A stretch of 64,000 nt of DNA. Source: Candidatus Omnitrophota bacterium (lineage in GTDB: Bacteria > Omnitrophota > Gorgyraeia > Gygaellales > Profunditerraquicolaceae). Within the stretch, counting starts at the first letter, position 1. Each line of letters begins with the position of its first letter. Positions 8,859-62,671 of the stretch are shown here, piece by piece. The translations under genes and the position numbers were made by a program. The notes below the pieces were generated by a model. The model made no database searches. It saw only the letters and a list, made by a program, of their open reading frames with translations, and was not told the origin of the DNA. The DNA lies in NCBI GenBank assembly GCA_016208765.1, contig JACQXK010000071.1, forward strand, positions 22,429-86,428. Reading direction: 5' to 3'.

Positions 8859-8944
8859 TGTTACCTCCTAGATCTTTTTTACAAACGCTTCAGATACAAC
8901 ATTGAAAACATCCCTATTTTGTGCGAAAAAACACTTGAATTATG

Positions 8945-9277: not shown

Positions 9278-9615
9278 CTTTTAATCCATTTATTGACTAC
9301 GTTTACTATCTTGTTCCGGATAATCTCATTTTCAACGCCCCTGCTCTTATTCCCACGAGACGGACGCAAATTAATCATAGAGTCAAATTCAATAAACTCA
9401 TCGCCTTGCAATTCCGGATAAAAGTTGGTCCCCCAAAGACTATGTTGTTTTGAGCCATTTTCTAAAAGCAACGCCTCTAAATCTGGGTGCAGTTCAGCGT
9501 CAAGAGCAACAAGCTCCCTGTCCACATCCACAACTGCCTTTACAAGATTTCCAAAAGTATCCGTAGCCAATTGCTTAAGTTCATTAAGCGAAATAATCTC
9601 AATAATTATTTTCAT
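9274..9615 (-). CDS. DUF5674-like small protein
   Basis: ISLNELKQLA..FGNLVKAVVDV..ELHPDLEALLLENGS..LWGTNFYPE..EFDSMINLRP..N(K)SRGVEN pattern recalls DUF5674 family (from memory). Confidence 0.4.
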   Translation of the reverse strand: MKIIIEIISLNELKQLATDTFGNLVKAVVDVDRELVALDAELHPDLEALLLENGSKQHSLWGTNFYPELQGDEFIEFDSMINLRPSRGNKSRGVENEIIRNKIVNVVNKWIKR

Positions 9616-9711
9616 ACGCTGAATTATATCTCAAACAAAAGCTGCCTGCAACCAAATTTTACAAAAATTCGTTTGACTGAGTAGCTATTTAAGGTAAAAT
9701 ATTTAAACTAT

Positions 9712-9981
9712 TCCCCCTTAGCTCAGTCGGTAGAGCGAGTGGCTGTCAAATTGGCAGCTTCCGTGGGAAACCACGGTTGAAACTGCAGGAGAATTGCTGG
9801 AAGTCCTTACGGGATAATCAGCAGCCGAGCCCGCCGTTAAATTTTCGGCGAGGAAGGTTCAGAGACTATGCACCTGCTGCCTAAAGCGCAAGCTACGGTA
9901 AAGATATAGTCCACTTCCGAAAGTAATTTCGGGTTAAGTGTAACCACCAGGTCCGAGGTTCGAGTCCTCGAGGGGGAGCCA
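9712..9981 (+). tRNA. tRNA-Asn(GUU) gene interrupted by a group I intron in the anticodon loop (exons 9712-9746 and 9941-9981, CCA encoded)
   Basis: Exons fold into a cloverleaf: acceptor tccccct/aggggga, D-arm gctc-agtcggta-gagc, anticodon arm agtgg-ctGTTaa-ccacc (G34U35 from the 5' exon, U36 from the 3' exon), variable loop aggtc, T-arm cgagg-ttcgagt-cctcg, discriminator G + CCA. Confidence 0.8.
9747..9940 (+). ncRNA. group I self-splicing intron (194 nt, cyanobacterial tRNA-Leu-intron-like core)
   Basis: Exact R element GTTCAGAGACTA (9858-9869) and S element AAGATATAGTCC (9901-9912); P-like AATTGCTGGAAG and Q-like AATCAGCAGCC; P1 gctgt|c pairs with IGS ggcagc giving U·G at the 5' splice site; intron ends in G (9940). 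Confidence 0.8.
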
Positions 9982-9983
9982 TA

Positions 9984-10028
9984 AATAATACCCAGCTGAT
10001 TATTTATCAGCTGGGTATTATTATTTAA
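9984..10028 (+). terminator. rho-independent terminator after tRNA
   Basis: Perfect 15-bp stem aataatacccagctgat / atcagctgggtattatt with loop tattt, followed by a T-rich tract. Confidence 0.6.
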
Positions 10029-21500: not shown

Positions 21501-21699
21501 TCTCCTTCATTTCAAGGGCGGCTTTATTGGTAAAGGTAATGGCAAGGATTGTCTCAAGGGGGATTTCCTGCGCAGCTAAAGAAGGATTAATTAAAAGCTT
21601 GATATACCTTTTAGCTAAGGCATACGTCTTTCCGCTTCCTGCAGATGCCTCGGTGACATAAATACAAGGGAGAGTTTCTTTTGATGCTTTTTGAACCAT
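18589..21699 (-). CDS. addA: AddA/RexA-like UvrD-family helicase with C-terminal RecB-type nuclease
   Basis: Walker A ASAGSGKTYALAKRY, motif Ia ITFTNKAALEMKERI, C-terminal nuclease motifs (GDVLHFVLS … IIDYKSAK). Confidence 0.8.
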   Translation of the reverse strand: MVQKASKETLPCIYVTEASAGSGKTYALAKRYIKLLINPSLAAQEIPLETILAITFTNKAALEMKERILDFLKKIALDKFKSLEEKNEVIEFLGVPEDAACKKAFRIMDTLLSNYQFFQVQTIDSFINAILSGCAFKLDLSAGFKTQTEYKEYLEYSLDKLIDKAGSDKDALELFRGFLKQYLYIENKEGWFPKKDIATIIAGLYSRSNKYHGKFIRSNIEIKDFIMRRNEVIELIVRLSQNVPEGADKRFAGYLSDFPNEDKEKFDITKLSNYFNRESFPLNKGYSLSEEIELLWNRIRTGLKQLCELEALFKFNYYIDIFNRVLDDLKIKSSKDDVLFLEELNKKARILFDEKSLELPELYLRLATRFRHFLLDEFQDTSLLQWENLKTMVDEALAGAGSLFYVGDKKQAIYRFRGGEVSLIDTVKEQFKGYLIISDVLQKNFRSAGNIVEFNNAVFSEENLSRFLSKEEIKKELSESCAEEIMRIFKGAKQEVVIHKSGGYIKSEFLNYKNEDERNGALKEKLLFQIQDLRERFPAKDIGILTRTNDDVQLVTSWLLEKNIPVESEKTLNIRENSYIKELVSFLKFLNSPIDDLSFASFIMGDIFCRASGISQDKIRDFIFELNHDAEDKSYLYRKFQKEFPEAWDNLFKDFFRKAGFVPLYEFVVTIYGKFSILGNFPSYQGFFMRFLELIKEQEEENPGVSDFLGFFDNARDEDLFVNVTSEESVRVMTIHKSKGLEFSAVVIPFLEMDIKLDSDIVDSDDGELKLLYVKQRFGDFSDGLREIIRKEYLKSFIDELNSVYVALTRSRDELYIYVSPRIGNKLNFASLIFEQNDFEIGEKLSSIKKGKLKDLSNFEIPVCAYKDWIHFLHDEFIDETVLVQREKILKGDVLHFVLSNIGNLHNQDEDLVINNAFKQARKRFPHFTDFSACEKTARSLLKDKAFSEYFYLKDAEVYQEKEIVSRQGQTKRIDRLIVKKDEVVIIDYKSAKVADDTYQKQVKEYVGIIKEIYPKSEVKGILIYLDDLTKIEVGV

Positions 21700-24606: not shown

Positions 24607-26847
24607 CTACCCTGCTTCTTTCTTTAATGCAGACAGCTCTGTTATGATCTTCCCCGCCCAACGGTAGACATTATTTTCCTTAACGATATTTCTCATGTTC
24701 TCCATCCGCTTTCTTTTTTCTTCAACCGGCATTTCAATGGCGAATTTTATCGCATCTGAAAATTCTTCAATAGAATACGGGTTTATTTGTATTGCATCCG
24801 TTAACTCCCGAGATGCCCCTGTAAAACGGCTTAATATCAGAGTGCCGCTTAAATCGTTCTTTGATGAAACATATTCCTTTGCAACCAGGTTCATCCCGTC
24901 GTGCAAAGAGCTCACAATACACAGGTCAGCCAAGGAATAATAAGGTACGATTTCCTCCGGGGAAAAGTGGCGTTTTAAATAAACGATCGGGTTCCAGACC
25001 CCGTCAGAATACTTCCAGTTTTTCTTTTCCACTAATTCATCAATCTCTGCAATAAGTTCATGATAACGCTTAATATGCGTCCTGCTGGGAGCTGCCAATT
25101 GGACAAAAACAAATTTATTTCTATACTGGGGGTACTTCTCAAGAAACCTGTCTATTGCCATTATCCTCTCAATAATACCCTTGGTATAATCAATTCTATC
25201 AACTCCCAAAGCAACTACTTTATCTTCCAAATTGTATTCTTTGCGGATTTTTTTTATCTGTTCAGGATCAATCTTAAGAATATTCCCTCCGATATAGCCA
25301 TCAACGCTGATTGGGAAAGCCCTGACAAACGTCTCTTTATTTGCCCTGACAATACTGAATTTTTCAGTATCAACACGGCACTCAACCAGGCGATTGGCAG
25401 TATCAAGAAAATTATTGCAATGAAACTGAAGATGAAAACCGATTAAATCACAAGCCAGCATTCCTTCAAGGATCTCATGCTGGTAAGGGCAAATCGCAAA
25501 AACCTCAGGGTTAGGCCAGGGAATATGCCAAAATATGGCAACTATTGCATCAGGCCTTTTTTCCTTAATCATTTTTGCAAGAAGAGTAAAATGGTAATCC
25601 TGGATAAAAACAAAAGGGTTTTTTGCCGGCAGTTCTTCCAGAATGCTATCCGCAAATTTCTGGTTTACTTTTTTATACATCTGCCAGTCTGTTTCCCTGA
25701 AAATTGGGCGCGTATGAGTAACGTGGCAAAGAGGCCATAAGCCCTCGTTTGAAAAGCCGTAGTAATACCCATCCTCTTCTTCTTTTGTAAGCCATACTCT
25801 TTTAAGGATATAGCGGTCTTCACCCGGAGGCACACCCAATTTGTTCTTTGAATTTACAAATTGCCTGTCGGCATTTGCGCTCCCGTGGGCAACCCAAGTA
25901 CCGCCGCATGCCCGTAAAATCGGGTCTATTGCCGTAACTACTCCGCTTGCAGGGCGCACGCATTTTGGAACACCTGTATTTTCATCTATTATATGAAGAT
26001 ACGGCTCTCTGTTAGAAACAACAAAAAACGCGTTCTCCCCCAATTTTGCATGGATTAAATCACGGAGCTTCGCCTCAGTCCAAACCTCTTCTTTTTGTAT
26101 TCTAACATGCGCCTCATCTGAAACTGCTTTACGGGCCACCCTAAGCCCCAAAGCGACCTGCTCAACTTCACTAATAAGCTTCCCAAATTCTCCTTCTTCC
26201 TTAAACGGCCTCAGCTTATCCGTCTCGCCCCGCTGAAAATGGCTGAACCATTGCGTTAACCTGCGTACCGGTAAAATAAATATCTGACGCTGAATCAAAA
26301 AAGCAATTATCGTAATTAACAAAATTAAAATAATTAACGTTACACTGATCTTCTTCCATAACTCGGTTAAAGTATTAAACATATAGGAGGTATCATAAAG
26401 GACCTCCACTAACCCTAAAACATTGTTATCATCATCCAAGACTGGCTGCACATAACTATAAACAGTATATTCCCTGAAACTTTCAAGCTCTCCGCGGGGA
26501 TTCTTATTTATAAGCATGTCCTTAATATACGGCTTGTCTTTCTGGCTCCAGTCAGAGAAACGCTCTGTGATTGCCAAAATCTGCCCGTCTTTGTCATAGA
26601 TTGCACAACCCTGGAGCCTTTCTTTTCTTTGAAAGATCTCCACCAAACGATTGGCTGATTTTAGATCATTATTAACAAGGATGTATCGCGCAGACAACTC
26701 AAGGCTCTCATTAACTGTCTTGGCCTTTCTTTTTAGATCATCCATTAATTTATCCTGCGTAAAACGCACCTGGACAATACCGGATACCGTAAAAACTACC
26801 GAAATAATAATTAAAATCGGTAAAATAAATAAAAGGACTCTTTTCAT
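24607..26847 (-). CDS. otsA: trehalose-6-phosphate synthase (GT20, OtsA) fused to N-terminal TM sensor domain + HAMP-like linker
   Basis: C-terminal ~470 aa carry OtsA blocks (YYYGFSNEGLWPLCH, IQDYHF, GT-B fold); N-terminal ~280 aa = TM1, ~150-aa extracytoplasmic Cache-like domain, TM2, amphipathic HAMP-like segment. Confidence 0.8.
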   Translation of the reverse strand: MKRVLLFILPILIIISVVFTVSGIVQVRFTQDKLMDDLKRKAKTVNESLELSARYILVNNDLKSANRLVEIFQRKERLQGCAIYDKDGQILAITERFSDWSQKDKPYIKDMLINKNPRGELESFREYTVYSYVQPVLDDDNNVLGLVEVLYDTSYMFNTLTELWKKISVTLIILILLITIIAFLIQRQIFILPVRRLTQWFSHFQRGETDKLRPFKEEGEFGKLISEVEQVALGLRVARKAVSDEAHVRIQKEEVWTEAKLRDLIHAKLGENAFFVVSNREPYLHIIDENTGVPKCVRPASGVVTAIDPILRACGGTWVAHGSANADRQFVNSKNKLGVPPGEDRYILKRVWLTKEEEDGYYYGFSNEGLWPLCHVTHTRPIFRETDWQMYKKVNQKFADSILEELPAKNPFVFIQDYHFTLLAKMIKEKRPDAIVAIFWHIPWPNPEVFAICPYQHEILEGMLACDLIGFHLQFHCNNFLDTANRLVECRVDTEKFSIVRANKETFVRAFPISVDGYIGGNILKIDPEQIKKIRKEYNLEDKVVALGVDRIDYTKGIIERIMAIDRFLEKYPQYRNKFVFVQLAAPSRTHIKRYHELIAEIDELVEKKNWKYSDGVWNPIVYLKRHFSPEEIVPYYSLADLCIVSSLHDGMNLVAKEYVSSKNDLSGTLILSRFTGASRELTDAIQINPYSIEEFSDAIKFAIEMPVEEKRKRMENMRNIVKENNVYRWAGKIITELSALKKEAG

Positions 26848-26892: not shown

Positions 26893-26930
26893 TAAATATT
26901 TAGATTGGCGGCCCGACCATCAATGTTCCC
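26893..26930 (-). terminator. rho-independent terminator (minus strand)
   Basis: Hairpin ccgccaa…ttggcgg followed by T-run on minus strand, downstream of gene 26999-27682. Confidence 0.5.
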
Positions 26931-26998
26931 TCTAGAAATGTCTTTTCATTTCCAGACCACTTATTATGCATAATTATCTTATTTCATTTTAGCGCATT

Positions 26999-39238: not shown

Positions 39239-40735
39239 TTATTTCAAGAAATCTAAAACCAAATCCCCTGCCTGAAGCCCGGAGATAAAACAGCCGTGCA
39301 CACCTGGCCCAGGCCAAGTCCATTCGCCTGCTAAATATAACCCTTTAATCCGTGTTTTCTGAGGCAGGCGGTTTTCTCCTGACTGCCTCACCAAAGGAGA
39401 AAAACCGTAAATCGCTCCTTGCGTTGATTGAGTAAAACGCTCAACAGTTAATGGAGTGGCAATTTCTTTTACCTCAATATATTTGCTAAACCCTGGCAAG
39501 TATTTCTCAACGCGCCTAATTAAGATTTGCGCTACCTTTTCCTTCTTAGCAATATATTCTGACTCAGCTAAATCCTCCCAATTAGTGTAAGAATCCAAAG
39601 TCATCACCAAAAGGCTTCCTTTCCCTTGAGGCACAAGCCCCGGGTCAATTTGCGCATGGTCAACCAGCTCAAGCGGGCATTCTTCATAATCACCGGTCAG
39701 GCAATATTGAAAGTTATTATCATGATCGTAAGTAGCATTAATTGAAAACACAGGCTGGTTCATCCCCAGGTTTTTTGCTGGGACACTCAGGCCCAAATAC
39801 ACCTGAAACGCTGAGACGGAGTTTTCCATATTCTTTAATTCTTGTGCATATTTCTGCTTTAAAGAATCATCGTCCAGGAATTTAGTTAAAGTATCAACGG
39901 CATTGGCATTAGAAATCACAGACCTTGCCTCAATCTCATCGCCTTTATCAGTAATTACTGACTTAGCCCTTCCTTTTTGCGTTACTATTTTAACTGCTGA
40001 GGTATTAAACTTAAATTCAACCCCTTTTCTCTTCATTTCCTGGACCATCACCTCAAACAACCTGCCAAAACCTCCTTTTACATAACAAGTGGGAGCAAAA
40101 TAATAACCCCTAAAGACCAAGAGGAAATAAAACGCAGAGGCCATTGAAGGAGGGAGCCCGATAAACCGCCATAAATCGGATAAAATACCGATAAGTTTTT
40201 CGTCTTTAATGTACTGTTTCAACAAATCCTTCAATGTGAGACGTGAAATTTTCAAAATCTCACTAAAAAAGACCGGAGAAATCGCTATTTTCAGAAAATA
40301 AGGAATCTGCCAGTGGCAGAAATTGTCAAATTGATTGTAGAATTTTCCAATCCGTAGGAATAACTTTTGGATATTTTCTGCTTCAGAAGGAAAATTGTTT
40401 ATCAAATATTCTTTAAAGTGCTCCGAAGAGAAATCAAGGACAAAATCATGTTCAGGATAGATTACGCGGGCAAAATTCTCTAAATCAATAAAGTCAATTT
40501 TGCTGGCGAACCCGGCGTCTTCAAGGAATTTGCGCATCTCCCCGTCTTTACCAAGGCTGTCCACGCAATGCAGGCTTGACTCAAAAACAAAACCTTTTCT
40601 TTTAAAAACAGTAGCGCACCCTCCGGGAACTGGCTGCTTTTCCAAAATAATGACTTTCTTGCCATTTTGTGCAAGGCTCAGCGCAGAAAATAACCCACCT
40701 ACGCCAGCACCAATTATTACACAATCATATCGCAT
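39239..40735 (-). CDS. FAD-dependent oxidoreductase, phytoene desaturase (CrtI) family
   Basis: N-terminal Rossmann YDCVIIGAGVGGLFSALSLAQNGKKVIILEK and CrtI-family C-terminus. Confidence 0.7.
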   Translation of the reverse strand: MRYDCVIIGAGVGGLFSALSLAQNGKKVIILEKQPVPGGCATVFKRKGFVFESSLHCVDSLGKDGEMRKFLEDAGFASKIDFIDLENFARVIYPEHDFVLDFSSEHFKEYLINNFPSEAENIQKLFLRIGKFYNQFDNFCHWQIPYFLKIAISPVFFSEILKISRLTLKDLLKQYIKDEKLIGILSDLWRFIGLPPSMASAFYFLLVFRGYYFAPTCYVKGGFGRLFEVMVQEMKRKGVEFKFNTSAVKIVTQKGRAKSVITDKGDEIEARSVISNANAVDTLTKFLDDDSLKQKYAQELKNMENSVSAFQVYLGLSVPAKNLGMNQPVFSINATYDHDNNFQYCLTGDYEECPLELVDHAQIDPGLVPQGKGSLLVMTLDSYTNWEDLAESEYIAKKEKVAQILIRRVEKYLPGFSKYIEVKEIATPLTVERFTQSTQGAIYGFSPLVRQSGENRLPQKTRIKGLYLAGEWTWPGPGVHGCFISGLQAGDLVLDFLK

Positions 40736-40742
40736 GTTTTAT

Positions 40743-41585
40743 TTAGGCAGAAAGCCTGTTTAAGAAATTAATAGATTCCTGAATAACTTTTTCTTTTTCC
40801 TGGTCAATGGTAATCATATGGTAGCTGTCTTCTAAAATAACCAGGTTTTTATCAGAAGACCCGATACGGGCATAAACATACTGTGAGTTCTTTAAACTGA
40901 CCATATCGTCTTCGCGGGCATGAATCAGAAGGATAGGTGTTTTAACCAAAGGGATTTCATTTTTCACCAGCTTAACAAACTGATGATGCTGATAAAGGCA
41001 GGCAAGAGGAAAATACGGGCTGCCGAATAATGCCAAATCTTTATAATCCGGATTTTTTGCCCGCGCATATTTATAAAAACGATGGATTGTTTCACGCAAA
41101 TATTTATCTTTGAGGCCATATGGCCAGCCCTCGCGGATCCCAAGCCGGTTCCTGATAAAAGGAATGCTCCAGCCAAATTCAAGCAGGATTTTTCCTTTAT
41201 TCAGGCCCCAGCCGTCATAAAACAAGGTCGGAGCCAAAGCAACAATTCCAGGAACCTGCGAAGGGAATTTATAGGCAAGATGCACAGCCATCATTGCGCC
41301 CATAGACAGCCCTGCAACAAAAACCTGCGGATATTCTTTACTTAATTCCTGAAAATCTCTCACGCAGGCCGCTTCTATCTCCTGCCAGGTCACTTTTTTT
41401 AAATCATCCTGGCTGCCGCAATGACGAGGAAGGGCATTACACATCACTGTAAAACCGGCTTTATGCATAGCCTTGCCCAAATGGTTCATTTCATTTGGGG
41501 TACCGGTTATACCGTGGATTAAAAGCACTGCCCTTGGGCCTGCTTTTAAGAAGAAATTTTTCTTTATTGAATTTTCCTGAGCCAT
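40743..41585 (-). CDS. alpha/beta-hydrolase fold esterase/lipase
   Basis: Nucleophile elbow GLSMGAMM; Asp/His triad candidates near C-terminus. Confidence 0.7.
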   Translation of the reverse strand: MAQENSIKKNFFLKAGPRAVLLIHGITGTPNEMNHLGKAMHKAGFTVMCNALPRHCGSQDDLKKVTWQEIEAACVRDFQELSKEYPQVFVAGLSMGAMMAVHLAYKFPSQVPGIVALAPTLFYDGWGLNKGKILLEFGWSIPFIRNRLGIREGWPYGLKDKYLRETIHRFYKYARAKNPDYKDLALFGSPYFPLACLYQHHQFVKLVKNEIPLVKTPILLIHAREDDMVSLKNSQYVYARIGSSDKNLVILEDSYHMITIDQEKEKVIQESINFLNRLSA

Positions 41586-41667
41586 AATAATCGCTTATTC
41601 TACCACAAAAAAAAGTATTGTAAATTTTAATGTTGTCTAAACATATATTTTTGCTATATTATTTACC

Positions 41668-42807
41668 ATGCGGGCAGAAAGCAATTTATCCTTCTTGGTT
41701 TCTCATTCAATTAAAGATATTCCCGAGGCAGACTGGAACCGTCTTTTTGGAGAAAATATCATTGAAGGTTTCGGTTATCATAAAACGCTGGAAGATTCAA
41801 ATCTAAAGGAATTCTCCCTCCGCTATCTGCTTGCAAGAAATAATGGCACCCTTGTTGCGATCATTCCCTTTTTTATCTCTGATTTTTCATTTACGACTCT
41901 TATACAGGGAAAATTACAGAAACTTATTTTTGCAATACAAAAAGTGTTCCCTCGTTTCTTAAGATTTAAACTTCTTTTTGCCGGTTCCCCAACTGGTGAA
42001 GAACTCTATGTAGGAATAGACAAAAATGAAAACTTAGAAAATATTCTTAACGGAGCAACACACATTCTTAAGCTTATCGGCAAAAAAGAAAAAACTGCCG
42101 CCACACTCTTCTTTAATCTTTCCGAAAAACACAAAGATATCACAAGGTACCTTAACAAACAATCATTTACCGGCATGAAAAGCTTCCCTAATACTGTACT
42201 TGAAATCTCGGCTGCCTCTCTTGATGATTATATTAACCAGCTGGGAAAAAGCACGCGCAAAAGCTTGAGGAAGAAACTAAGAGACACTCAGAATTCAACT
42301 CAATTAAGAACGCAGGTAACAGAAGATATTTCAGCAGTTAAAGACAGGATTTACGAATTATACCTGAACAATCTTACTGACTCTGAGGTCAGCTTTGAAA
42401 TTCTCACGCCTGAATTTTTCACAAACGTAGCTAAATATATGCCCGGAATTGCAAAGTATTTCCTCACCTGGGACAATGGGAATATTATCGCTTTTAACCT
42501 GTTGTTTATCAAAGGCGATACCGCTATTGACAAATTTATAGGTTTTGACAAAGAGCTTTCTCACAAATATAACCTTTATTATGCAACATTTTCGCATAAC
42601 TTAGATTACTGTATTAAAAACAAGATAAAATTCTACCAATTAGGAGTTACTGATTATGAACCTAAAACAAGGCTGGGAGCACAAATTATTCCGTTATATG
42701 TTTATACCAAATTCATGAATCCTTTATTGAATTTTGTTGCAAAGCCGATAATATCGCTAATTCAACCTGCCAACTTTGACCCCGTATTAAAAGCCCTTAA
42801 ATACTGA
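41668..42807 (+). CDS. DUF482/FemAB-like GNAT-fold acyltransferase family protein
   Basis: 379 aa; N-terminal region (IKDIPEADWNRLF…FGYHKTLEDSNL) resembles DUF482/FemAB-like proteins (from memory). Confidence 0.4.
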   Translation: MRAESNLSFLVSHSIKDIPEADWNRLFGENIIEGFGYHKTLEDSNLKEFSLRYLLARNNGTLVAIIPFFISDFSFTTLIQGKLQKLIFAIQKVFPRFLRFKLLFAGSPTGEELYVGIDKNENLENILNGATHILKLIGKKEKTAATLFFNLSEKHKDITRYLNKQSFTGMKSFPNTVLEISAASLDDYINQLGKSTRKSLRKKLRDTQNSTQLRTQVTEDISAVKDRIYELYLNNLTDSEVSFEILTPEFFTNVAKYMPGIAKYFLTWDNGNIIAFNLLFIKGDTAIDKFIGFDKELSHKYNLYYATFSHNLDYCIKNKIKFYQLGVTDYEPKTRLGAQIIPLYVYTKFMNPLLNFVAKPIISLIQPANFDPVLKALKY

Positions 42808-43078
42808 ACCTTTTGCAAAAATCATAATTTTCTCTGACAATAAACATCGCATCCTGCCTTTGATACATTTATAATCTTTAAGCGAGTCAATTTCACAAAA
42901 ATCGGCATTACTAAACAACTTTCTAAAACGACTTGATAGATCAAAATCCCGAACACTTTTTTCTACAAAAACCTTCCGTGAAGATAAATTTCTTTATTTA
43001 TACTTAATACATCCCGCGCATTTAGCTCTATTTTGGGTAAATTCAGGCTAACCGATTTAACAATTTCCTGCGCGAGTT

Positions 43079-43798
43079 TTAAACGCGAAGATTATTTTTG
43101 AAAGATTCGCATATAAGGTTTACAGCAGATTTTACTGCGGAGAAAATCTTTGCTTTTAATTCCGGCTCCATATCAAAATAGAACGGCTTTTCATTTATAA
43201 TATCGCTTACATAAAAAAGTGCGGCTGCCTTTAATGCGCAATGCTTAGCTGCTGCAAAAAATGCTGAGCACTCCATCTCAACCACGTCTACCTGCTCTTT
43301 TATTAATGAATCATGCATTTCTTCTTCTAATCTTAGGCTCCCCAAAGTGGCGCAAGAAACTTCCTTTACCCCTATTTCTCTACGATAAGTTAACAAAACC
43401 TTAAATAAATCAGCGTCCGGATAGAAAATATTGCTTTTTTTAAATTTGTCTTTTAACAACTCGCTAAAGCTCTCATTCTCCCAGCATTTAGAAGGCGCCA
43501 CCAAGCTGCCGATATCAAGCCCGTTATTTTTGTTAACAAGCCCGCAGGAGCCAAAAAGAATAATATTCTCGCAAACTGTCTCTTTAAGATATAAAACCGC
43601 ATCTGCTGTAAAAGCAGCTCCCATACCGGTTTGGATAACAGTGTAATCATTATGATTGCCTGAGCAAAATAATTTTCCTTTTGTTAAACTGTTTATCTTA
43701 AACTCAGCCAATATCCCTTTAGGCAATAAAGGCAATAAAATACAATTCTTCTTTATTTCAGAGGCATCCACCCCGAATAAAGCTTTAAATTTTGTCAT
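43079..43798 (-). CDS. PNP/UDP-1 family nucleosidase/phosphorylase (MTA/SAH/5'-dAdo nucleosidase- or futalosine hydrolase-like)
   Basis: GMGAAFTADAV…IILFGSCGLV…VDVVEMECSAFF blocks of the PNP_UDP_1 fold. Confidence 0.55.
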   Translation of the reverse strand: MTKFKALFGVDASEIKKNCILLPLLPKGILAEFKINSLTKGKLFCSGNHNDYTVIQTGMGAAFTADAVLYLKETVCENIILFGSCGLVNKNNGLDIGSLVAPSKCWENESFSELLKDKFKKSNIFYPDADLFKVLLTYRREIGVKEVSCATLGSLRLEEEMHDSLIKEQVDVVEMECSAFFAAAKHCALKAAALFYVSDIINEKPFYFDMEPELKAKIFSAVKSAVNLICESFKNNLRV

Positions 43799-44874
43799 AT
43801 CTGAATTAAGTTGTATTCCAAATTTCCCAAGCCGATTTGCGCAGCGTGTTTAAACATCTCTTCATGCACCGCCTTCTGAGGATGCGAGATCTTACCGTAA
43901 TCAGAAATTACATCTGAAGTCGCCTTATCAAGGCTCAAAACATCAGTAGAAAAAAATATGCCGCAGTTATCAAAAATCATTTTTGCGTTTTTATCAGACT
44001 CGCAGTCACATCCTTTGGTAATATCAAAAGCAAAATTAAAAAATAACTTCTGCTTAAATTTAGAAAGGATAAAATTAGCCACGGTATTCATGCGCTTACA
44101 GAATATTAACGGGTCTTCGTGCCAATTAATATAAACCGCGCAAGATTTGCACGCTGAAATACACTCGCCACAGCCAATACAGGTATCCTGATCAATAACA
44201 GACTTATCATCTTTTAGAGTAATCGCCTTTACAGGACAAACCACAACACAACATCCGCAACCAGTACATTTATTTTTTATAATACTTGGCTTTAAAGATG
44301 AATGCTGCACTTGTTTTGTTGCACGACTACTCATGCCCATAGCTACATTCTTAATACCTGCAGCAAAACCACTTACTATGTGCCCGGTAACATGCGAACA
44401 GACAACCAGGCTATTTAGCATCCCTATAAAAGAAGGAACTTTAATGGCTTTGATTAAATCTTCGTTCAAAACATACTCCCTGCCATCCTGGCCAAAAAGC
44501 CCGTCGGCAATAATAAAAGGGGCTTCCACGCGCGAATGGCCAAACCCCTTACTCTGCGCCAGATTCAAATGATCAACGGCATTCTGGCGCTCACCGCTAT
44601 AAATTACACAGGTATCAAATAAAAAAGGTTTTGCCCTTTTGTTTTTCAACTCCAGGACCAGTGCCTTTAAAAAAACCGGGTTCAAATTATAAACACAAGC
44701 AGAATCTCCGATAGTAAGCTTTACCGGAATAAATTCATTTTCTTCAAAAACAAAGGAAGGCGCCAGCTTGTGCAGCAATTTTTTAAACCCTTCCAGCCTT
44801 ACCTCAGCATCTTTTGAATTAATTCTTATAAAATATACATCACTTTTCATATTTGTTTTTAAAATAACCTCCAA
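43795..44874 (-). CDS. DUF362-family protein with 2x[4Fe-4S] ferredoxin insert
   Basis: CTGCGCCVVVCP and CIGCGECISAC motifs within a DUF362-like scaffold. Confidence 0.5.
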   Translation of the reverse strand: MEVILKTNMKSDVYFIRINSKDAEVRLEGFKKLLHKLAPSFVFEENEFIPVKLTIGDSACVYNLNPVFLKALVLELKNKRAKPFLFDTCVIYSGERQNAVDHLNLAQSKGFGHSRVEAPFIIADGLFGQDGREYVLNEDLIKAIKVPSFIGMLNSLVVCSHVTGHIVSGFAAGIKNVAMGMSSRATKQVQHSSLKPSIIKNKCTGCGCCVVVCPVKAITLKDDKSVIDQDTCIGCGECISACKSCAVYINWHEDPLIFCKRMNTVANFILSKFKQKLFFNFAFDITKGCDCESDKNAKMIFDNCGIFFSTDVLSLDKATSDVISDYGKISHPQKAVHEEMFKHAAQIGLGNLEYNLIQI

Positions 44875-45733
44875 AATTATGAATGTAAATATTATACCTC
44901 TTTTTGGCGGTTAACGCCGCATTTTTAATCTCTTCTTCTATATTTTTAAAAACATTAATATAAAATTCTGCGTCAGAAAGCATACGCTCATAAGGTTGCT
45001 GTAAAGAAGGCTCAACCAGGTTAATCTTATTGATGATTTCCTTAATATTAGGTAAATTAAAGTTCAAACATTCAAGTTCTATTGATTCGGCGCCTTCAAA
45101 CTTATTAAAAATATCTTTTAAGCTTGAAACAAAAGGTAAAACCGGAGAAAAATAAGGAACAACTGAAATGCCTTCGCCAATTAAAGTGTTTATTGCCTGT
45201 TCGCGCAATTTAAAATCAGGGCTCTTAGGCTCAAGCACTGCCTTAAACTTTTGTCCAAAATTATTCAGAGTAAAATAAACCTTACGGCAAAACCCTGCTT
45301 TTAATAACGGCAGATAATCCAGAATAAATGGCGAGCGGGTTAAAATCACAAAATTAACCTTATGCTTATTAAGAATATCTAAAATCTTCTCTGTAATTTT
45401 ATATTTTCTCTCTATCGGCTGAAAACACTCTGTAGTTGAGCCTAATAAAACCTGCTTGGGCTTATTCTTGATAATTTCATTTTCTAATAATTCAGGAGCA
45501 TTAACGCGGATATCCACATATTCACCCCAGGGTTTATTTTTCCTGCTCACCACCCTGTTTCCACGAACATAACAGTATAAACAACCAAATTCACAGCCCA
45601 TAAACGGGTTAATTACAAAATCCCCCAGGCCGATGGAAGTCGGATTAAGGATCCGTGATATTTTTACTTCATTAAATTCAGGCATTTTTTTCAAGCAGGT
45701 TTCCGATATAAGATTTGGTAAATTTAAAACCAT
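44840..45733 (-). CDS. radical SAM protein, SplB-like (COG1533 'DNA repair photolyase' family)
   Basis: NPFMGCEFGCLYCYVR matches the SplB-type CxxxCxxC context. Confidence 0.65.
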   Translation of the reverse strand: MVLNLPNLISETCLKKMPEFNEVKISRILNPTSIGLGDFVINPFMGCEFGCLYCYVRGNRVVSRKNKPWGEYVDIRVNAPELLENEIIKNKPKQVLLGSTTECFQPIERKYKITEKILDILNKHKVNFVILTRSPFILDYLPLLKAGFCRKVYFTLNNFGQKFKAVLEPKSPDFKLREQAINTLIGEGISVVPYFSPVLPFVSSLKDIFNKFEGAESIELECLNFNLPNIKEIINKINLVEPSLQQPYERMLSDAEFYINVFKNIEEEIKNAALTAKKRYNIYIHNFGGYFKNKYEK

Positions 45734-46985
45734 GCTCCTTGATCTTACTCATAAAGATTTCCATCCTTTGAAACGCTATTTTATTTAATTTATAGTCAGC
45801 GCCTTTATCTGCCTCGGTGCCGTCATAATAAGTAAACGGGTTGACTTGTTCAATTTTAGGAATCAATACTTTATTCTTTACGATAAAATCAAGGCTCTCC
45901 TGAAAATCGCTATCAGTCTCCCCGGGATAACCCACAATAATACTTACGCCAAAGTTTAACCCGGCGCTATTAAGCTTCTTAAAAAAAGCAATTGCTTCTT
46001 CTTTGCTAAAACCCTTCTGCATCTTTAAAAGCGTATTATTGCATCCAGATTCAAGCCCGACAAAAAGATTATAACAACCGCTTTTCTTCATCTTTAAAAA
46101 AAGCTCATCCGGCATATCGTTACGAACGGCAACCTGCGCTTCCCAATTAATAGAGCCGAAATTATTAATAATTTCACCACACAGCCTGCCAAACTTCGCT
46201 AAATCCGCATTGAGTAAAGAATCAAAGAAAACAAAATACTTTATCCCGTGCCTTTCTTTATAAAACCTGATTTCTTCTATCAAGCTTTCAATGCTTCTTG
46301 CGCGATAGCCGCGAAAAATTAGCCTCTCTGAACAAAAACGGCATTTTCTAATGCATCCTCGCGAAAACTGTAGCGGTAAAGCAACTTTTCCCGGATAATT
46401 TTCTAAGTTTAGCCCGGCATAGCGGGGAAAATTCAAATCACTCAAAGTATCCATTTGCTCAAATTCTGCCCATCTCTTAGTTTGCCTGCCTGAAACAAGA
46501 TTCAATAACGGCTTCTCTCCTTCACCAACTACAAAATAATCAGCCCATTTAGAGAATTCTTCGCCAAAATTATCCTTATTCTTGAAAAACTGCCGGCAGA
46601 TTTCCGGGCCACCAAGAATAATTTTAATTTCCTTTTTCCTGGATTTAAGCTCTTGGGTTATTTTTTGCGTCGTATAGAAATTGCTTTTATAACAGGAAAA
46701 CCCGATAATATCACAAGCAAGCATCTTCTCAATGGCAGAATCAAACTCTTTGGAATACTTACTCTTTAATATGCCAAACAAATCTTGCTCAAGCCGTATA
46801 TTACAACTCACCAGCCATTCTCTTTTAAGATCCGTATCAGCAAGGTTATAAAAATAATTATTTAGATCGTAAATTTCAGAAGGAAATCCGTTCTTATTCA
46901 GGAAGGCCTGTAAAAATCCAAGGCCCAAAGGCGGCATCTTCGGCCAAAATGGAGGAAGGATTGTTAAAAGCAGTTGTTTGGCCAT
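45678..46985 (-). CDS. B12-binding-domain radical SAM enzyme (class B)
   Basis: N-terminal cobalamin-binding-like Rossmann domain, then FSRGCIRKCRFCSE (CxxxCxxC). Confidence 0.7.
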   Translation of the reverse strand: MAKQLLLTILPPFWPKMPPLGLGFLQAFLNKNGFPSEIYDLNNYFYNLADTDLKREWLVSCNIRLEQDLFGILKSKYSKEFDSAIEKMLACDIIGFSCYKSNFYTTQKITQELKSRKKEIKIILGGPEICRQFFKNKDNFGEEFSKWADYFVVGEGEKPLLNLVSGRQTKRWAEFEQMDTLSDLNFPRYAGLNLENYPGKVALPLQFSRGCIRKCRFCSERLIFRGYRARSIESLIEEIRFYKERHGIKYFVFFDSLLNADLAKFGRLCGEIINNFGSINWEAQVAVRNDMPDELFLKMKKSGCYNLFVGLESGCNNTLLKMQKGFSKEEAIAFFKKLNSAGLNFGVSIIVGYPGETDSDFQESLDFIVKNKVLIPKIEQVNPFTYYDGTEADKGADYKLNKIAFQRMEIFMSKIKEHGFKFTKSYIGNLLEKNA

Positions 46986-47600: not shown

Positions 47601-47639
47601 ATGTATGCTATATTATTATCTTAGAGTAGACTCTAAACA

Positions 47640-48917
47640 TTGTCAACCACCAAAAATATGTCTCCAAGAATCCTTAAGCACCCGGAAAGAAAATTAGTCT
47701 TAGAAAATTTCTTCTCTCTTACCATACTACAAGGCCTAAGTTATCTCCTGCCGCTAATTATACTCCCCTATCTTATCCGCGTAATTGGCGCAGAGCGTTT
47801 TGGCCTGATTGCATTCGCCCAGGCCTTTGTCCACTATTTTATGATCCTTACTGACTACGGCTTCAGCCTTACTGCCTCAAGAAGGATTTCCCTGCACAAA
47901 GATAAAAAACACAAAATAAAAACAATTTTCTCCTCGGTAATGACAATAAAGATCCTTCTCACCGCGTTTAGCTTTATTATTATGCTCTTACTTATCCAAA
48001 GCATCCCCCGTTTCAGGCAGGATTGGCTGGTGTATATGTTCAGCTTTGGTGCGGTAACCGGAAACATTCTCTTTCCTGTCTGGCTGTTTCAAGGGGCAGA
48101 GAGAATGAAATATGTTACAGCAATAAACGTAATCGGAGGATTAATTTATACAGCCTGTATCTTTATTTTTGTTAGAAGCACTGCAAATTATATTTATGTC
48201 CCACTGCTTAATTCTCTGCTTGCCTTAGGAACAGGCATTGCCGGGCTTATTATCGCCTTTAAAAAATTCGGCCTTGAATTTGTAGAACAACCTTTTGAGC
48301 TTATTCAGGAGGAGTTTAAAACCGGATGGAGCGTTTTTGTTTCTGTAGTAGCAATCAACGCCTACACATCAACGCGTATTTTCGCCATGGGCCTTCTAAC
48401 CAACAATATTCTTACCGGATACTATTCTATTGCCGAACGTATCGCCTATTTTGTCCAAACATTTCCCTTAGATTCATTTTCACAGGCAATCTACCCGCGG
48501 CTCAACCGTATTTTCCATAAAAATAATGAGCGTGCTTTAAAGTTAATGCGCAAAATTCAAGCCTCAACCACTCTTTCCTATGTAGTGGCCATCCCGATTA
48601 TTTTCCTTTTAGCTCCCTGGATCGTAGGAATAATCTGCGGGCAAAAGTTTGAAGCGGTAATTTTAAATTTAAGGCTGCTTTTAATTGCGGCATTTTTTGT
48701 CTGCGCGAATGCATTCAGGATCCAGTTTCTTTTAGTCTGCGGAAGACAGGACATTTATTCAAAACTGCATCTTGCAGCAGCAATGGTAGGGCTTCCCTTA
48801 ATATTTGTCTTTGTATTTCTATTTTCTTATCCGGGCGTTGCCATTTCGGCGATTACCATGGAATTCGCCATTCTTTTGGTGACTAAACACACCATCAAAA
48901 AATACAGCATATATTAG
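47640..48917 (+). CDS. Wzx-like oligosaccharide/polysaccharide flippase (MOP superfamily)
   Basis: 425 aa, ~12 TM, polysaccharide biosynthesis protein family N-terminus. Confidence 0.7.
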   Translation: MSTTKNMSPRILKHPERKLVLENFFSLTILQGLSYLLPLIILPYLIRVIGAERFGLIAFAQAFVHYFMILTDYGFSLTASRRISLHKDKKHKIKTIFSSVMTIKILLTAFSFIIMLLLIQSIPRFRQDWLVYMFSFGAVTGNILFPVWLFQGAERMKYVTAINVIGGLIYTACIFIFVRSTANYIYVPLLNSLLALGTGIAGLIIAFKKFGLEFVEQPFELIQEEFKTGWSVFVSVVAINAYTSTRIFAMGLLTNNILTGYYSIAERIAYFVQTFPLDSFSQAIYPRLNRIFHKNNERALKLMRKIQASTTLSYVVAIPIIFLLAPWIVGIICGQKFEAVILNLRLLLIAAFFVCANAFRIQFLLVCGRQDIYSKLHLAAAMVGLPLIFVFVFLFSYPGVAISAITMEFAILLVTKHTIKKYSIY

Positions 48918-60103: not shown

Positions 60104-62671
60104 TTATTGACAGATTTTTACGGCTGGAATACCTATTTTATTTTCTATTCTCTGTTTATCTTTATAATCAATATGGTGCAGAGAACAGTGATCAACAATC
60201 ATGAACTTCATAACCCTTTTTGCTGTTTCAGAAAAATCTTCTTCATGCAGTTTTTCGACTATTTTTTCAATCTGAAGATTTTTCTTGTACCACATCAGAA
60301 TTCCATGTAGCACTAAGAAAAAGGCTGGGTTATTTTCTTTTTCGCATACATTAACAGCAATTTCAGTTAACTTGTCGGAGCCCAATGAATGCACAATCTT
60401 ATAAATAATACCACATACCACAAAAATATTTGAATTCCAAAATATCTTTTTTGCTATTTTTTCAAGCTCCTCTTCACTCAGTTTCTTATTTTTTGTTTCA
60501 TTTTCTTTTATAATTTTCTTCAATCTGTCTGATATAAAAGTAATTATAGTTTTTTGTCCTTCCTTATCTTTTATTATTGCGAAGAAAGAAGATAAAATCC
60601 TTAAATGAAGTTTCATGCCTGCCTCAAAAATTTCTTCTAGTTTTGGCTTCTCTAAAGAACCAGACCGATTTTTGATAATACACCCCATTACTTCTACTGT
60701 TCTTATGGCTCGTCTTAATTCCTTACCCAATGAATCTTCTAGGTCTTCATCTCTTTGATTTTGTTCCTTTTTCGATTGTTCATGGTGGTCTTGAATCTTT
60801 AGTCTTCCATTTCTTTCCATCTCAGGAGTTACATTATCGGGTGGCAAGGCTGCCTTAATAATACTCTCGACTTCTTCATCAAAGAATTTAACTTCCTCTT
60901 TTGTTAAAGTTGCCTCTTTATATTTATCAAATAAACATAACGCATTAAGATTAATATCGTTAAGGATATTCTCATTTTTCGAATGATGTACCATAAAAAC
61001 TGCAATATAAGCATTTTCGTTAACATGTAGATTATTCATTATCTTTTCTATTTCTTTTTTATTCTCCTCAAAATGTTCTGCGATATGTTTAGCAGCAAAA
61101 AAGTAATAAAGATACGAATGTGTGAATGAATAGTTATTAAGACTACCTCTTGAAACAATCTGGATTAGATTTTTAAGTAAAGTTGCGGTTTTAATAGGAA
61201 AATTAAATTTCTTCTGATAAAATTCCATAAATTTTGCAAAATCATCAACGGATAACTCTATTTTCTTTTCTTTGTAAATATAGAAAGCGAATTCAGTTAA
61301 GAAATTAATGTAAATATCAATTTCATCATTTTTTACTCCCTGTTTCCTTAAATAAAAGAATATTAAAGCCTGATAACAGTAACCCTGAGATGTTATTTCT
61401 TGATCAAGAGGTATTGCAAATGTATCGTAAGTAACTATAGCTGACAAAATAAAAAAAGGATACGCAGGAAGAATGCCCTTATCAATATTCTTGCCTAAAA
61501 TACTATCTGTCAGCTCTACCTTTTCATCAATGCTTTTGTAGCTATCAACGGATTTTATTTCTCTATTTGCCAAGCTTGTCCATTTTTTGATTAATTCGCA
61601 TCTTAACGAAGGCTTAAATTCCTTTATCTTAAAGTGGTTAAATGCTCCAATAAGCTTTTCGTCTCTGACATTTAAACCAAAAATGTCATCCACAATAACG
61701 ATACAATGAGAATAGACAGATAAAGCCTTAATATTCTTTTCCTTGTCTTTTGCGAGATAAAAATCATCAACTATCGGCACTATCCTCTCTTTATCGATTT
61801 GATCTAAATTGATACCCTCATATTGTTGATGAAATAAATAAGTTATTTTATTTTCAATCTTTCCCTTAAATTGATTCTCGCTATCATATACATAAACTGG
61901 AACAAAATTATGTTTTCGTAGCTCTTTGAAAATCATTTTGCACAATGCTGTTTTTCCTGACTGACCATCTCCTGCTATAAGAATCCTGGGATAATCCAAA
62001 AGATTTCTAATTAGTTCCTCTGAATTCATTTCTGCTTCGTATTCTCGTAACGCATTGAACTTACCCAAAGGGGGATACACAAAAATATCATCTAAAGAAA
62101 CTATTTCCTTCTGCGAGTGTGCCTTTGTTAGCATCTCAGCATTTTGTAAAAAGCTTTCAAATTCTCCTGTAACCTTAAGTTGTCTTATCTTTGCCTCTTT
62201 TTCAATTACCGTTTTCAGCCCTTCATAAACATTCTGCCATCCTTCGTCATGGTTTTTAAAATTAGAAACGGGGTTTCCATCGGTAGGCAAAACTAATAGC
62301 TTAGAAATGTCCACATCATCTGGCCATCCACAACTTGATAGAATAATTGAAACAACAGCTATTCCTTTCTTTTTTCTAAGCTCCATTGCTTTTGCTTTTT
62401 CCTTCAAGCAATTAGAAGAATTTAAAAAATTGGCAGATACAAATAGGCATATTATATCTACATCTTCTAAATTGTTATCGATTTTGCTCTGGTAATCATC
62501 ACCCGGTATAATCTTACGATCATACCATTCAATTATTGAATCATTATTCTTAAGAGGCGCTATATGTTTCCTAAATTGCTCAATATAAGGATTCTTAGTA
62601 AGGTTATCCTCGTGCGAGTATGCGATAAAAATCTTTAGTTTTGCATTTTCTTCCATTGTACTAACCTCCAT
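60104..62671 (-). CDS. TIR-domain protein fused to STAND/NACHT-like P-loop NTPase and long helical C-terminus (antiphage-type architecture)
   Basis: TIR blocks KIFIAYSHEDN … ICLFVSANFLNSSNCLKE; Walker A ILIAGDGQSGKTA; Walker B-like CIVIVDD; ~450-aa helical C-terminus. Confidence 0.7.
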   Translation of the reverse strand: MEVSTMEENAKLKIFIAYSHEDNLTKNPYIEQFRKHIAPLKNNDSIIEWYDRKIIPGDDYQSKIDNNLEDVDIICLFVSANFLNSSNCLKEKAKAMELRKKKGIAVVSIILSSCGWPDDVDISKLLVLPTDGNPVSNFKNHDEGWQNVYEGLKTVIEKEAKIRQLKVTGEFESFLQNAEMLTKAHSQKEIVSLDDIFVYPPLGKFNALREYEAEMNSEELIRNLLDYPRILIAGDGQSGKTALCKMIFKELRKHNFVPVYVYDSENQFKGKIENKITYLFHQQYEGINLDQIDKERIVPIVDDFYLAKDKEKNIKALSVYSHCIVIVDDIFGLNVRDEKLIGAFNHFKIKEFKPSLRCELIKKWTSLANREIKSVDSYKSIDEKVELTDSILGKNIDKGILPAYPFFILSAIVTYDTFAIPLDQEITSQGYCYQALIFFYLRKQGVKNDEIDIYINFLTEFAFYIYKEKKIELSVDDFAKFMEFYQKKFNFPIKTATLLKNLIQIVSRGSLNNYSFTHSYLYYFFAAKHIAEHFEENKKEIEKIMNNLHVNENAYIAVFMVHHSKNENILNDINLNALCLFDKYKEATLTKEEVKFFDEEVESIIKAALPPDNVTPEMERNGRLKIQDHHEQSKKEQNQRDEDLEDSLGKELRRAIRTVEVMGCIIKNRSGSLEKPKLEEIFEAGMKLHLRILSSFFAIIKDKEGQKTIITFISDRLKKIIKENETKNKKLSEEELEKIAKKIFWNSNIFVVCGIIYKIVHSLGSDKLTEIAVNVCEKENNPAFFLVLHGILMWYKKNLQIEKIVEKLHEEDFSETAKRVMKFMIVDHCSLHHIDYKDKQRIENKIGIPAVKICQ

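Follow-up and report, generated by a model that had tools for sequence, protein, structure and literature searches.

We analyzed a stretch of 64,000 nucleotides from a Candidatus Omnitrophota genome (contig JACQXK010000071.1 of assembly GCA_016208765.1, positions 22,429 to 86,428 of the forward strand; hereafter the window, with positions counted from its first letter) and, within it, an operon of overlapping genes encoding two radical S-adenosylmethionine (SAM) enzymes, an iron-sulfur protein of the DUF362 family and a nucleosidase-like protein. We found that this operon is a trimmed form, specific to one lineage, of a gene cluster conserved throughout Candidatus Omnitrophota. The cluster also has scattered occurrences in Brocadiales, Elusimicrobiota and some further lineages. 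As judged by sequence scores, none of the operon proteins is orthologous to a characterized enzyme. We tentatively interpret the operon as an uncharacterized radical SAM tailoring module in which the nucleosidase would clear 5'-deoxyadenosine-type products, a reading to which we assign a probability of roughly 45%. Omnitrophota are widespread bacteria that have not been cultured; many are ultra-small, and little of their biochemistry has an experimental footing.

Conservation and trimming of the gene cluster

An alignment of the nucleosidase family (hereafter PNP-like, after purine nucleoside phosphorylase, PNP) was scanned over 185,579 species genomes, giving 80 loci with 132 relatives confirmed. 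Most loci came from Omnitrophota, the others from Brocadia and other anammox bacteria, Elusimicrobiota/Endomicrobia, Desantisbacteria, Auribacterota and one bin labeled Chlamydiae. For the neighborhood counts, open reading frames (ORFs) were called in all loci and clustered, and 82 loci carrying the PNP-like gene were considered. The usual gene order turned out to be a PAS-HD regulator, optionally a TtcA-like PP-loop protein, a B12-binding-domain radical SAM enzyme (B12-rSAM), a small SplB-like radical SAM enzyme (small rSAM), a DUF362 protein with an inserted ferredoxin domain (DUF362Fd), the PNP-like protein and, finally, a long radical SAM enzyme of the spore photoproduct lyase (SP lyase) family, which we call SPLlong (about 450 amino acids, PF20903).

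SPLlong was present in 56 of the 82 loci, nearly always directly downstream of the PNP-like gene, and the two genes overlapped wherever this was scored (48/48 loci), by 34 nt in 27 cases. DUF362Fd was found directly upstream of the PNP-like gene in 41 loci, and the overlap between these two genes consisted of the sequence ATGA in 25/39. Joined by conserved overlaps, DUF362Fd, PNP-like and SPLlong are the most constant core of the cluster. Orthologues of B12-rSAM were less frequent (31/82), as were those of small rSAM (27/82), which lay nearly always immediately after B12-rSAM and overlapped it in 12 of 22 loci. The cluster thus appears to consist of two modules, the trio DUF362Fd-PNP-SPLlong and the pair B12-rSAM/small rSAM. 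The PAS-HD regulator stood in front of the cluster in 22 loci, and the TtcA-like protein (180 bits against a cut-off of 272) was inserted in 5. We considered a 171-amino-acid PAS protein of the window as a truncated PAS-HD gene and dropped this candidate, since no significant similarity was found.

In many Omnitrophota, the cluster is embedded in a syntenic housekeeping neighborhood (fba, pyk and Dus). SPLlong is often followed by a convergent pair of genes encoding a NapH- and NapG-like membrane polyferredoxin (Fer4_5, about 470 amino acids) and a second DUF362 protein; this pair was found in locus L003 (9962-12344) and in 17 other loci, and is absent from the window. The N-terminal segment of the second DUF362 protein resembles a Tat signal.

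The composition of the cluster varied between lineages. The PNP-like gene lay directly after small rSAM in four loci (L027, L031, L032 and L037), and in the Elusimicrobiota loci it was accompanied by SPLlong as the sole radical SAM gene. In two Candidatus Brocadia genomes, orthologues of the B12-rSAM/small rSAM pair were located 3-5 kb from the PNP-like homologue (L061, 13860-17210; L067, 5033-7327). In L061, the pair is followed by a gene for a BshB1-type deacetylase (191 bits, cut-off 182.5).

In the window itself, four ORFs, all on the minus strand, had been described in an earlier, sequence-only reading as a B12-binding radical SAM enzyme, an SplB-like radical SAM enzyme, a DUF362 protein with a ferredoxin domain and a PNP_UDP_1-type nucleosidase, and Pfam and NCBIfam searches bore out these domains. 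Taken as the longest ORFs (46985..45678, 45733..44840, 44874..43795 and 43798..43079, encoding 435, 297, 359 and 239 amino acids, respectively), they overlap by 56, 35 and 4 nt, the first of which had been given as 55. Two starts were moved, because the N termini of homologues begin further downstream than these ORFs. The small rSAM start was set to the ATG at 45685 (MPEFNEVKISRILNPT) on the basis of its orthologues, which begin M-x-EFNEVKISRILNPT, and the DUF362Fd start to the ATG at 44850, since 31 of 31 aligned homologues begin with an MKSDVYF-like sequence. With these starts, B12-rSAM and small rSAM overlap by 8 nt (ATGCCTGA) and small rSAM and DUF362Fd by 11 nt, so that the earlier figures of 55 and 35 nt were overstated, whereas the 4-nt ATGA overlap between DUF362Fd and PNP-like stood unchanged. 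The genes overlap tightly and are probably translationally coupled, as had been proposed, although to a lesser extent than the first overlaps implied.

We next considered whether these are real genes. A sister contig, L009 (80-92% amino acid identity), served as a reference for dN/dS, each value being an average over both lineages. The ratios were 0.086 for B12-rSAM, 0.143 for small rSAM, 0.080 for DUF362Fd and 0.066 for PNP-like, as well as 0.059 for a gene encoding a Fer4_5 protein immediately upstream. Ratios of 0.06-0.14, together with hundreds of homologues for each of the four ORFs, argue for functional genes rather than chance ORFs, and by this sequence evidence all five are functional and kept by purifying selection. 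In addition, a Candidatus Omnitrophica metagenome-assembled genome encodes a protein that is 100% identical to the PNP-like one.

The four genes of the sequence-only reading were therefore confirmed, but the unit is larger than the four-gene operon it had proposed, as it also comprises the upstream Fer4_5 gene and the relic of a sixth gene just downstream of the PNP-like gene. The Fer4_5 gene ends 17 nt before the start of B12-rSAM, its product is 92% identical in L009, and it occupies this position in the window lineage and L009 only. It is probably the first gene of the operon.

The relic was recognized by comparing 56 SPLlong proteins with the stretch just downstream of the window PNP-like gene by tblastn, which gave up to 54-56% identity over 34-37 amino acids, with in-frame stops. 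In L009, the PNP-like gene is followed by the 5' part of SPLlong (8815-9871), undisrupted over about 1 kb up to the contig end. In a DNA alignment, positions 43078 to about 42812 of the window were homologous to the first 480 nt or so of the L009 gene, from which they differed by two deletions, of 183 and 31 nt, and by a 1-nt indel. The homology does not reach the CxxxCxxC core but breaks off shortly before it, at about 42812, 5 nt away from where a convergent FemAB-like gene (41668..42807) has its stop codon. Judged from these alignments, SPLlong is a frameshifted pseudogene relic of about 270 nt in the window and, because homology ends before the core and beside the FemAB-like stop, its 3' two-thirds were lost in this lineage. 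The adjoining stretch, 39239-42807, encodes an FAD oxidase resembling CrtI and carotenoid isomerase (195 bits against 587 for the carotenoid isomerase model, 178 against 238 for the CrtI family), an alpha/beta hydrolase and the FemAB-like GNAT protein. These three genes were found in two loci only, both of the window lineage (the window and Logan contigs with an identical PNP-like protein), where they take the place of the 3' part of SPLlong and of the polyferredoxin/second DUF362 pair of other Omnitrophota. They look like a replacement or insertion.

Table 1. Positions in the window of the operon genes, the downstream relic and a candidate promoter-like site
Feature	Positions	Strand	Basis or remark
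Promoter-like TTGACA-17-TAAGAT (candidate only)	47618..47646	-	Consensus scan, 10/12 matches
Fer4_5/NapH-like small membrane Fe-S protein, 153 aa	47003..47464	-	Pfam PF12801
B12-rSAM: B12-binding-domain radical SAM enzyme, class B type, methyltransferase-like, 435 aa	45678..46985	-	PF02310 + PF04055
Small rSAM: SplB/COG1533-type radical SAM enzyme, 281 aa	44840..45685	-	PF04055; start revised from 45733
DUF362Fd: DUF362 with inserted 2x[4Fe-4S] ferredoxin domain, 351 aa	43795..44850	-	PF04015 + Fer4; start revised from 44874
PNP-like: divergent PNP_UDP_1 protein, DeoD/MTAP fold, 239 aa	43079..43798	-	PF01048
SPLlong pseudogene relic, N-terminal ~165 codons only, disrupted	42812..43078	-	tblastn + DNA alignment to L009

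Families and folds of the encoded proteins

The PNP-like protein matched PF01048 (PNP_UDP_1) with 68.8 bits and gave a confident AlphaFold2 (AF2) model (mean predicted local distance difference test [pLDDT] score 91.9). In a Foldseek search, the best match of this model was the hexameric 5'-methylthioadenosine phosphorylase (MTAP) of Sulfolobus (1jdv; E 1e-17, template modeling [TM] score 0.75), followed by DeoD-type PNPs, and the TM scores of 0.67-0.76 to DeoD and MTAP structures identify the NP-I fold. The active site is largely retained. Ser90, Met180, Glu181, Ser203 and Asp204 of Escherichia coli DeoD correspond to S84, M175, E176, S198 and D199, of which S84, M175, E176 and D199 are invariant in the family, so that the GSCG loop, the Met-Glu ribose site and the base-protonating Ser-Asp pair of DeoD and Sulfolobus MTAP are all kept. 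Unlike these enzymes, with which it shares 16-20% identity, the PNP-like family has a nearly invariant leucine (Leu81) in place of the phosphate-binding Arg87 of DeoD, and four invariant and two nearly invariant cysteines. The equivalents of DeoD Arg24 and Arg43 may be Lys27 and Lys/Arg40, in a region aligned by eye. We predict that the protein, its ribose and purine residues being kept and one phosphate-binding arginine lost, cleaves an N-glycosidic bond, either by hydrolysis or by phosphorolysis.

The N terminus of the family contains an invariant hydrophobic motif, F4-x-x-L7-F8-G9. In DeoD, the N-terminal segment supplies His4 to the 5'-hydroxyl site of the neighboring subunit, and we take this segment to map onto the motif, which would suit a 5'-deoxy or 5'-alkyl substituent. 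The substrates of Sulfolobus MTAP are 5'-modified adenosines. In the family alignment (A1), the invariant cysteines are Cys19, Cys76, Cys85 (the counterpart of DeoD Cys91) and Cys149, while Cys105 and Cys177 are conserved almost throughout. They might form a metal or Fe-S site, or disulfides of the kind that Sulfolobus MTAP carries.

An exhaustive phmmer search of 1.84e9 representative proteins returned 377 representative clusters at E<=1e-3 and 107 at E<=1e-30, indicating, by sequence similarity, that the PNP-like family is a small, isolated branch of the superfamily; because so few proteins were returned, the large canonical families of PNPs and of 5'-methylthioadenosine/S-adenosylhomocysteine nucleosidases (MTANs) lie outside it. 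In line with this, the protein reached only 29.4 bits with the DeoD model (TIGR00107, cut-off 232.25) and 28.2 bits with the model of the MTA/SAH nucleosidase MtnN/Pfs (NF005522, cut-off 161), and in hmmalign E. coli MTAN aligned to it over a short central segment only.

Although SPLlong aligns with the SP lyase of Geobacillus over the whole catalytic core (E 5e-27) and shares with SP lyase (SplB; PDB 4fhc/4rh0) the CxxxCxYCY motif, it differs from this enzyme in several respects. Within the motif, C182, C186 and C189 are invariant, whereas the tyrosines Y188 (52/56 proteins) and Y190 (43/56) are otherwise phenylalanine. The position of SP lyase Cys140/141, of which Cys140 is the catalytic hydrogen-atom donor, is held by glutamate in 53 and by glutamine in 3 of the 56 proteins (glutamate in the alignment to 4rh0/4fhg). 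Moreover, SPLlong has an N-terminal extension of about 90 amino acids and four extra invariant cysteines (a C-x-C-x6-C...C set), and the protein of locus L003 scored 132.9 bits against a cut-off of 400 with the SP lyase model TIGR04070. Given the replaced catalytic cysteine, the extra invariant cysteines and the extension, SPLlong is, from its sequence, not an SP lyase.

B12-rSAM exceeded the cut-offs of both the B12-binding domain (PF02310, 36.8 bits, cut-off 32.1) and the radical SAM domain (PF04055, 77.8 bits, cut-off 29.5), and its translation contains the cluster motif CIRKCRFC (C-IRK-C-RF-C). It is thus predicted to be a cobalamin-binding-domain radical SAM enzyme of class B, taken as a broad class. 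With the class B methyltransferases MgmA, PhpK, TokK and CysS it shares the N-terminal B12-binding domain and the CxxxCxxC radical SAM core, but it scores far below every family cut-off: its best NCBIfam scores did not exceed 101 bits, against cut-offs of at least 251, and it reached 99 bits with the PhpK family (cut-off 600) and 70 with the MgmA family (cut-off 360). The nearest solved relative was 9ccb (E 2.5e-10), an entry cited in a paper on the B12-dependent radical SAM methyltransferase MgmA (PMC11796369). Small rSAM matched PF04055 with 41.7 bits and has the motif GCEFGCLYCY. Its best NCBIfam matches were the SplB/COG1533-type families PA0069, Rv2578c and "mobile pair B", at 73-101 bits against cut-offs of 360-430, and a search for solved sequence relatives found none. 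In a literature search, we found no functional study of the PA0069, Rv2578c or COG1533 families, nor of radical SAM enzymes from Omnitrophota.

DUF362Fd matched PF04015 (84.8 bits) and Fer4 families, with two 4Fe-4S motifs, and its AF2 model had a pLDDT of 86.7. The best solved folds were the LarA lactate racemases (E 2.6e-6, TM 0.47), while clostridial ferredoxins matched the insert. This fits the shared Pfam clan, CL0471, of DUF362 and DUF2088, the family of LarA (PMC11770544). Beyond clan and fold, however, DUF362Fd is distant from LarA and its fellow nickel-pincer nucleotide (NPN) enzymes, with TM scores of 0.4-0.48, 8-12% identity, a 2x[4Fe-4S] ferredoxin domain inserted and a Pfam assignment to DUF362 rather than DUF2088. 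No LarB or LarC was found in the 82 loci, and the LarE model gave a negligible match to the TtcA-like protein (20.5 bits against 150). DUF362Fd hence falls outside the LarA superfamily of NPN-dependent racemases, to which its model suggests a relation by fold only. A literature search found no functional study of DUF362 (PF04015, COG2006). As for the Fer4_5 protein, it matched PF12801 in two stretches (45 bits) and has two CxxxCP motifs; with the NapH subfamily it scored 28.5 bits against 213. It may be the electron entry point of the system, a role that we regard as putative.

Proposed function and competing explanations

In the reading that we favor, the two radical SAM enzymes of the operon would each cleave SAM to the 5'-deoxyadenosyl radical and tailor a substrate, the class B enzyme most likely through a cobalamin-dependent, methylation-type step on an unactivated carbon or phosphorus and the SplB-type enzyme most likely through a C-C or C-H radical rearrangement or a lyase-type step. 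Low-potential electrons would be supplied by the membrane Fer4_5 protein and the two [4Fe-4S] clusters of DUF362Fd, whose LarA-fold DUF362 domain may itself catalyze a reductive step. The PNP-like enzyme would then cleave the N-glycosidic bond of the 5'-deoxyadenosine-type product, thereby relieving product inhibition and returning adenine. By-product removal is preferred because the PNP-like gene is still under selection in the window, where SPLlong is lost, and because it follows different radical SAM genes in different genomes; selection beside the relic, together with these varied neighbors, argues that the role of the nucleosidase is not tied to a single radical SAM partner. The sequence-only reading had likewise offered 5'-deoxyadenosine recycling as a role for the nucleosidase, and its view of the operon as part of an uncharacterized pathway holds, as no operon protein reached any curated NCBIfam cut-off. 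The operon is of a known general kind, namely, radical SAM tailoring with a dedicated nucleosidase, built from families that all lack a characterized member. Its function, predicted from sequence and fold, is not in conflict with current knowledge.

Several points weigh against by-product removal. The near-universal adjacency and overlap of the PNP-like and SPLlong genes (48-56 loci) would be needless for a pure scavenger and suggests a more specific partnership. In most Brocadia loci, the PNP-like homologue adjoins no radical SAM gene at all. The roles of DUF362Fd and of the Fer4_5 protein are deduced from cofactor motifs and fold alone, as is co-transcription of the unit from gene spacing alone, and promoter-like sites are no commoner in the region than in shuffled sequences. 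No canonical MTAN or DeoD was found in 1.37 Mb of loci, which at about 20 kb per genome is a weak test of whether these organisms also have a canonical MtnN or MtnP. In a more novel reading, the trio DUF362Fd-PNP-SPLlong, with the B12-rSAM/small rSAM pair as an optional addition, would make or use a new nucleoside-derived molecule, either as a third radical SAM adenosylation-deadenylation system or by providing a nucleotide-derived cofactor for the DUF362 enzyme. We hold this to be rather improbable; if true, cofactor synthesis for a LarA-fold Fe-S DUF362 enzyme would be the first function for the large DUF362 family.

The conserved coupling of the PNP-like and SPLlong genes would also be explained by an adenosylation pathway resembling MqnE/MqnB or HpnH/HpnG. 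In such a pathway, a radical SAM enzyme, ancestrally SPLlong, would attach the 5'-deoxyadenosyl radical to a substrate. Removal of adenine from this intermediate by the PNP-like enzyme would leave a ribosyl-derived C5 unit, which B12-rSAM, small rSAM and DUF362Fd would process further. Enzymes of consecutive steps would be expected to show such a pattern, the two genes being adjacent and overlapping in 48-56 of the 82 loci and in several phyla, and to our knowledge both known radical SAM adenosylation systems use a dedicated PNP_UDP_1-family nucleosidase. The cluster resembles HpnH/HpnG(/HpnJ) and MqnE/MqnB in just this pairing of a radical SAM enzyme with an enzyme of that superfamily cleaving the adenine-ribose bond and, in the case of the hopanoid genes, in an additional B12-domain radical SAM enzyme. 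SPLlong, lacking the hydrogen-donor cysteine and carrying four extra invariant cysteines, would perform chemistry unlike that of SP lyase, and the hydrophobic N-terminal motif of the PNP-like enzyme would suit a 5'-C-linked substituent. However, purifying selection acts on the PNP-like gene (as an average over both lineages) even though SPLlong is a relic in the window, and in several loci the PNP-like gene follows other radical SAM types or none. The nucleosidase is DeoD/MTAP-like rather than MTAN-, MqnB- or HpnG-like, with no orthology by score (HpnG, TIGR03468, 18.3 bits against 187.1) and no futalosine-hydrolase match, and among the NCBIfam matches listed none of the radical SAM enzymes here resembles MqnE or HpnH. 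Nor is a squalene-hopene cyclase or a chorismate-derived context conserved with the cluster. On balance, we consider an adenosylation pathway, the foremost rival of by-product removal, unlikely.

Quite unlikely, too, in our view, is a system acting on nucleic acids or nucleosides, that is, modification or repair of tRNA or DNA, or salvage of modified nucleosides. The target of the SP lyase-type radical SAM enzymes would then be a base in a polynucleotide or nucleoside, and the base, once modified, would be released or recycled by the PNP-like enzyme. We know of no action of the DeoD/MTAP fold on polynucleotides, and no cut-off of an NCBIfam tRNA- or DNA-modification family was reached, despite the homology of SPLlong to Geobacillus SP lyase across the catalytic core, with CxxxCxYCY kept, and the placement of small rSAM among SplB/COG1533-type families. 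The TtcA-like homologue of a PP-loop tRNA thiolase could be taken as a further hint but is inserted in 5 of 82 loci only. The housekeeping synteny in many Omnitrophota is in keeping with such a role, while the isoelectric points of the proteins, no higher than the proteome background (median 8.95), are uninformative. The closest precedent is queuine salvage, where the nucleoside hydrolase QueK is paired with the radical SAM lyase QueL (PMC11130926). The logic of a nucleoside-cleaving enzyme encoded with a radical SAM enzyme is the same, but QueK belongs to another hydrolase family (IPR023186; PMC11130926) than the PNP-like enzyme, and the likeness to QueL is one of gene pairing. A queuosine link through a QueC-like ORF near the window operon, recognized by motif only, was rejected, as this ORF is common to the closest relative contig only and not to other loci.

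It is very improbable that one of the known pathways is hidden in the operon, be it the futalosine route to menaquinone, hopanoid side-chain formation, BchE, ladderane lipid synthesis or methylthiolation of the MiaB/RimO kind. B12-rSAM does show weak similarity to several of the families concerned, namely, the ladderane-associated TIGR04072 (101.3 bits, cut-off 360), HpnJ (TIGR03471, 75.8 against 577.6), BchE (TIGR02026, 82 against 481.35) and MiaB/RimO/MtaB (TIGR00089, 66.3 against 251), but all these scores lie 3 to 8 times under the curated cut-off. HpnR (TIGR04367) gave 42.9 bits against 650, and HpnH was absent from the NCBIfam matches listed. In addition, the N terminus of B12-rSAM is a B12-binding domain, not UPF0004, and Pfam revealed no TRAM domain. 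MqnB, MqnC and MqnE, whose models we take to belong to NCBIfam, were absent from the matches at E<=0.01 for PNP-like and small rSAM and from the best 25 of 28 for B12-rSAM. The presence of PNP-like homologues in Brocadia, along with TIGR04072 as the best match, had suggested a ladderane link, which we rejected since the Brocadia orthologue of B12-rSAM (L061) also stays below the TIGR04072 cut-off, at 100.1 bits. Similarly, a CrtI/HpnE-like oxidase lies 2.3 kb away, but a link to carotenoids or hopanoids by way of this gene and the hydrolase and FemAB-like genes was discarded, as all three are confined to the two loci of the window lineage, where they occupy the site of the lost 3' end of SPLlong, and do not accompany the cluster elsewhere. 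The sequence-only reading was thus right that the arrangement is not a canonical mqn, hopanoid or bchE one, with HpnJ, HpnG and BchE all far under their cut-offs and no mqn family among the matches listed, and neither family scores nor neighborhoods gave the confident mapping to a known pathway with matching gene order that it had named as grounds for abandoning its proposal. In contrast, its suggestions of a ribosomally synthesized peptide, a lipid or a quinone-like product found no support, as none of the genes conserved beside the cluster in the 82 loci encodes a precursor peptide or a prenyl or lipid function.

Whichever reading applies, the cluster unites families to which no function has been assigned: DUF362, an SP lyase-like enzyme lacking the catalytic cysteine, an isolated PNP branch and a pair of class B and SplB-type enzymes. 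With the product identified, several hundred to a few thousand metagenomic proteins would gain an annotation, and new radical chemistry, acting on a nucleoside-type substrate, could come to light. The loss of SPLlong in the window, set against a sister lineage that retains at least its 5' part, offers a natural comparison for the interdependence of these genes.

Other features of the window

Between 42700 and 47800, no Rfam match was obtained at E<=1, hence no SAM or cobalamin riboswitch was found there. An anti-phage defense system was also considered for the operon and rejected: PADLOC gave no multi-component match, only a generic radical SAM match for B12-rSAM (PDC-M51A, 76 bits) and a ferredoxin-motif match of DUF362Fd to BrxP (E 9.5e-4), and none for the remaining proteins.

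Elsewhere in the window, a group I intron (RF00028, 80.8 bits, 9737-9933) lies inside an apparent tRNA gene on the plus strand (about 9713-9990). In this gene, the 5' exon stops within the anticodon arm, and ...GGTTCGAGTCCTCGAGGGGGAGCCA closes the 3' exon; ARAGORN made no call for this tRNA. On the minus strand, an AddAB-like pair, consisting of a UvrD-type helicase (1036 amino acids) and a PDDEXK nuclease (950 amino acids), occupies 15736-21699, and an nhaA-I RNA, an Rfam riboswitch (RF03057; 39.8 bits against a gathering score of 37), is located at 26902-26959, just upstream of a 746-amino-acid ORF (24607-26847). A protein of about 850 amino acids with TIR and ATPase_2 domains, a defense-like architecture, is encoded at 60104-62671, also on the minus strand, and adjoins genes for a GT87-family glycosyltransferase and a T2SSE ATPase.

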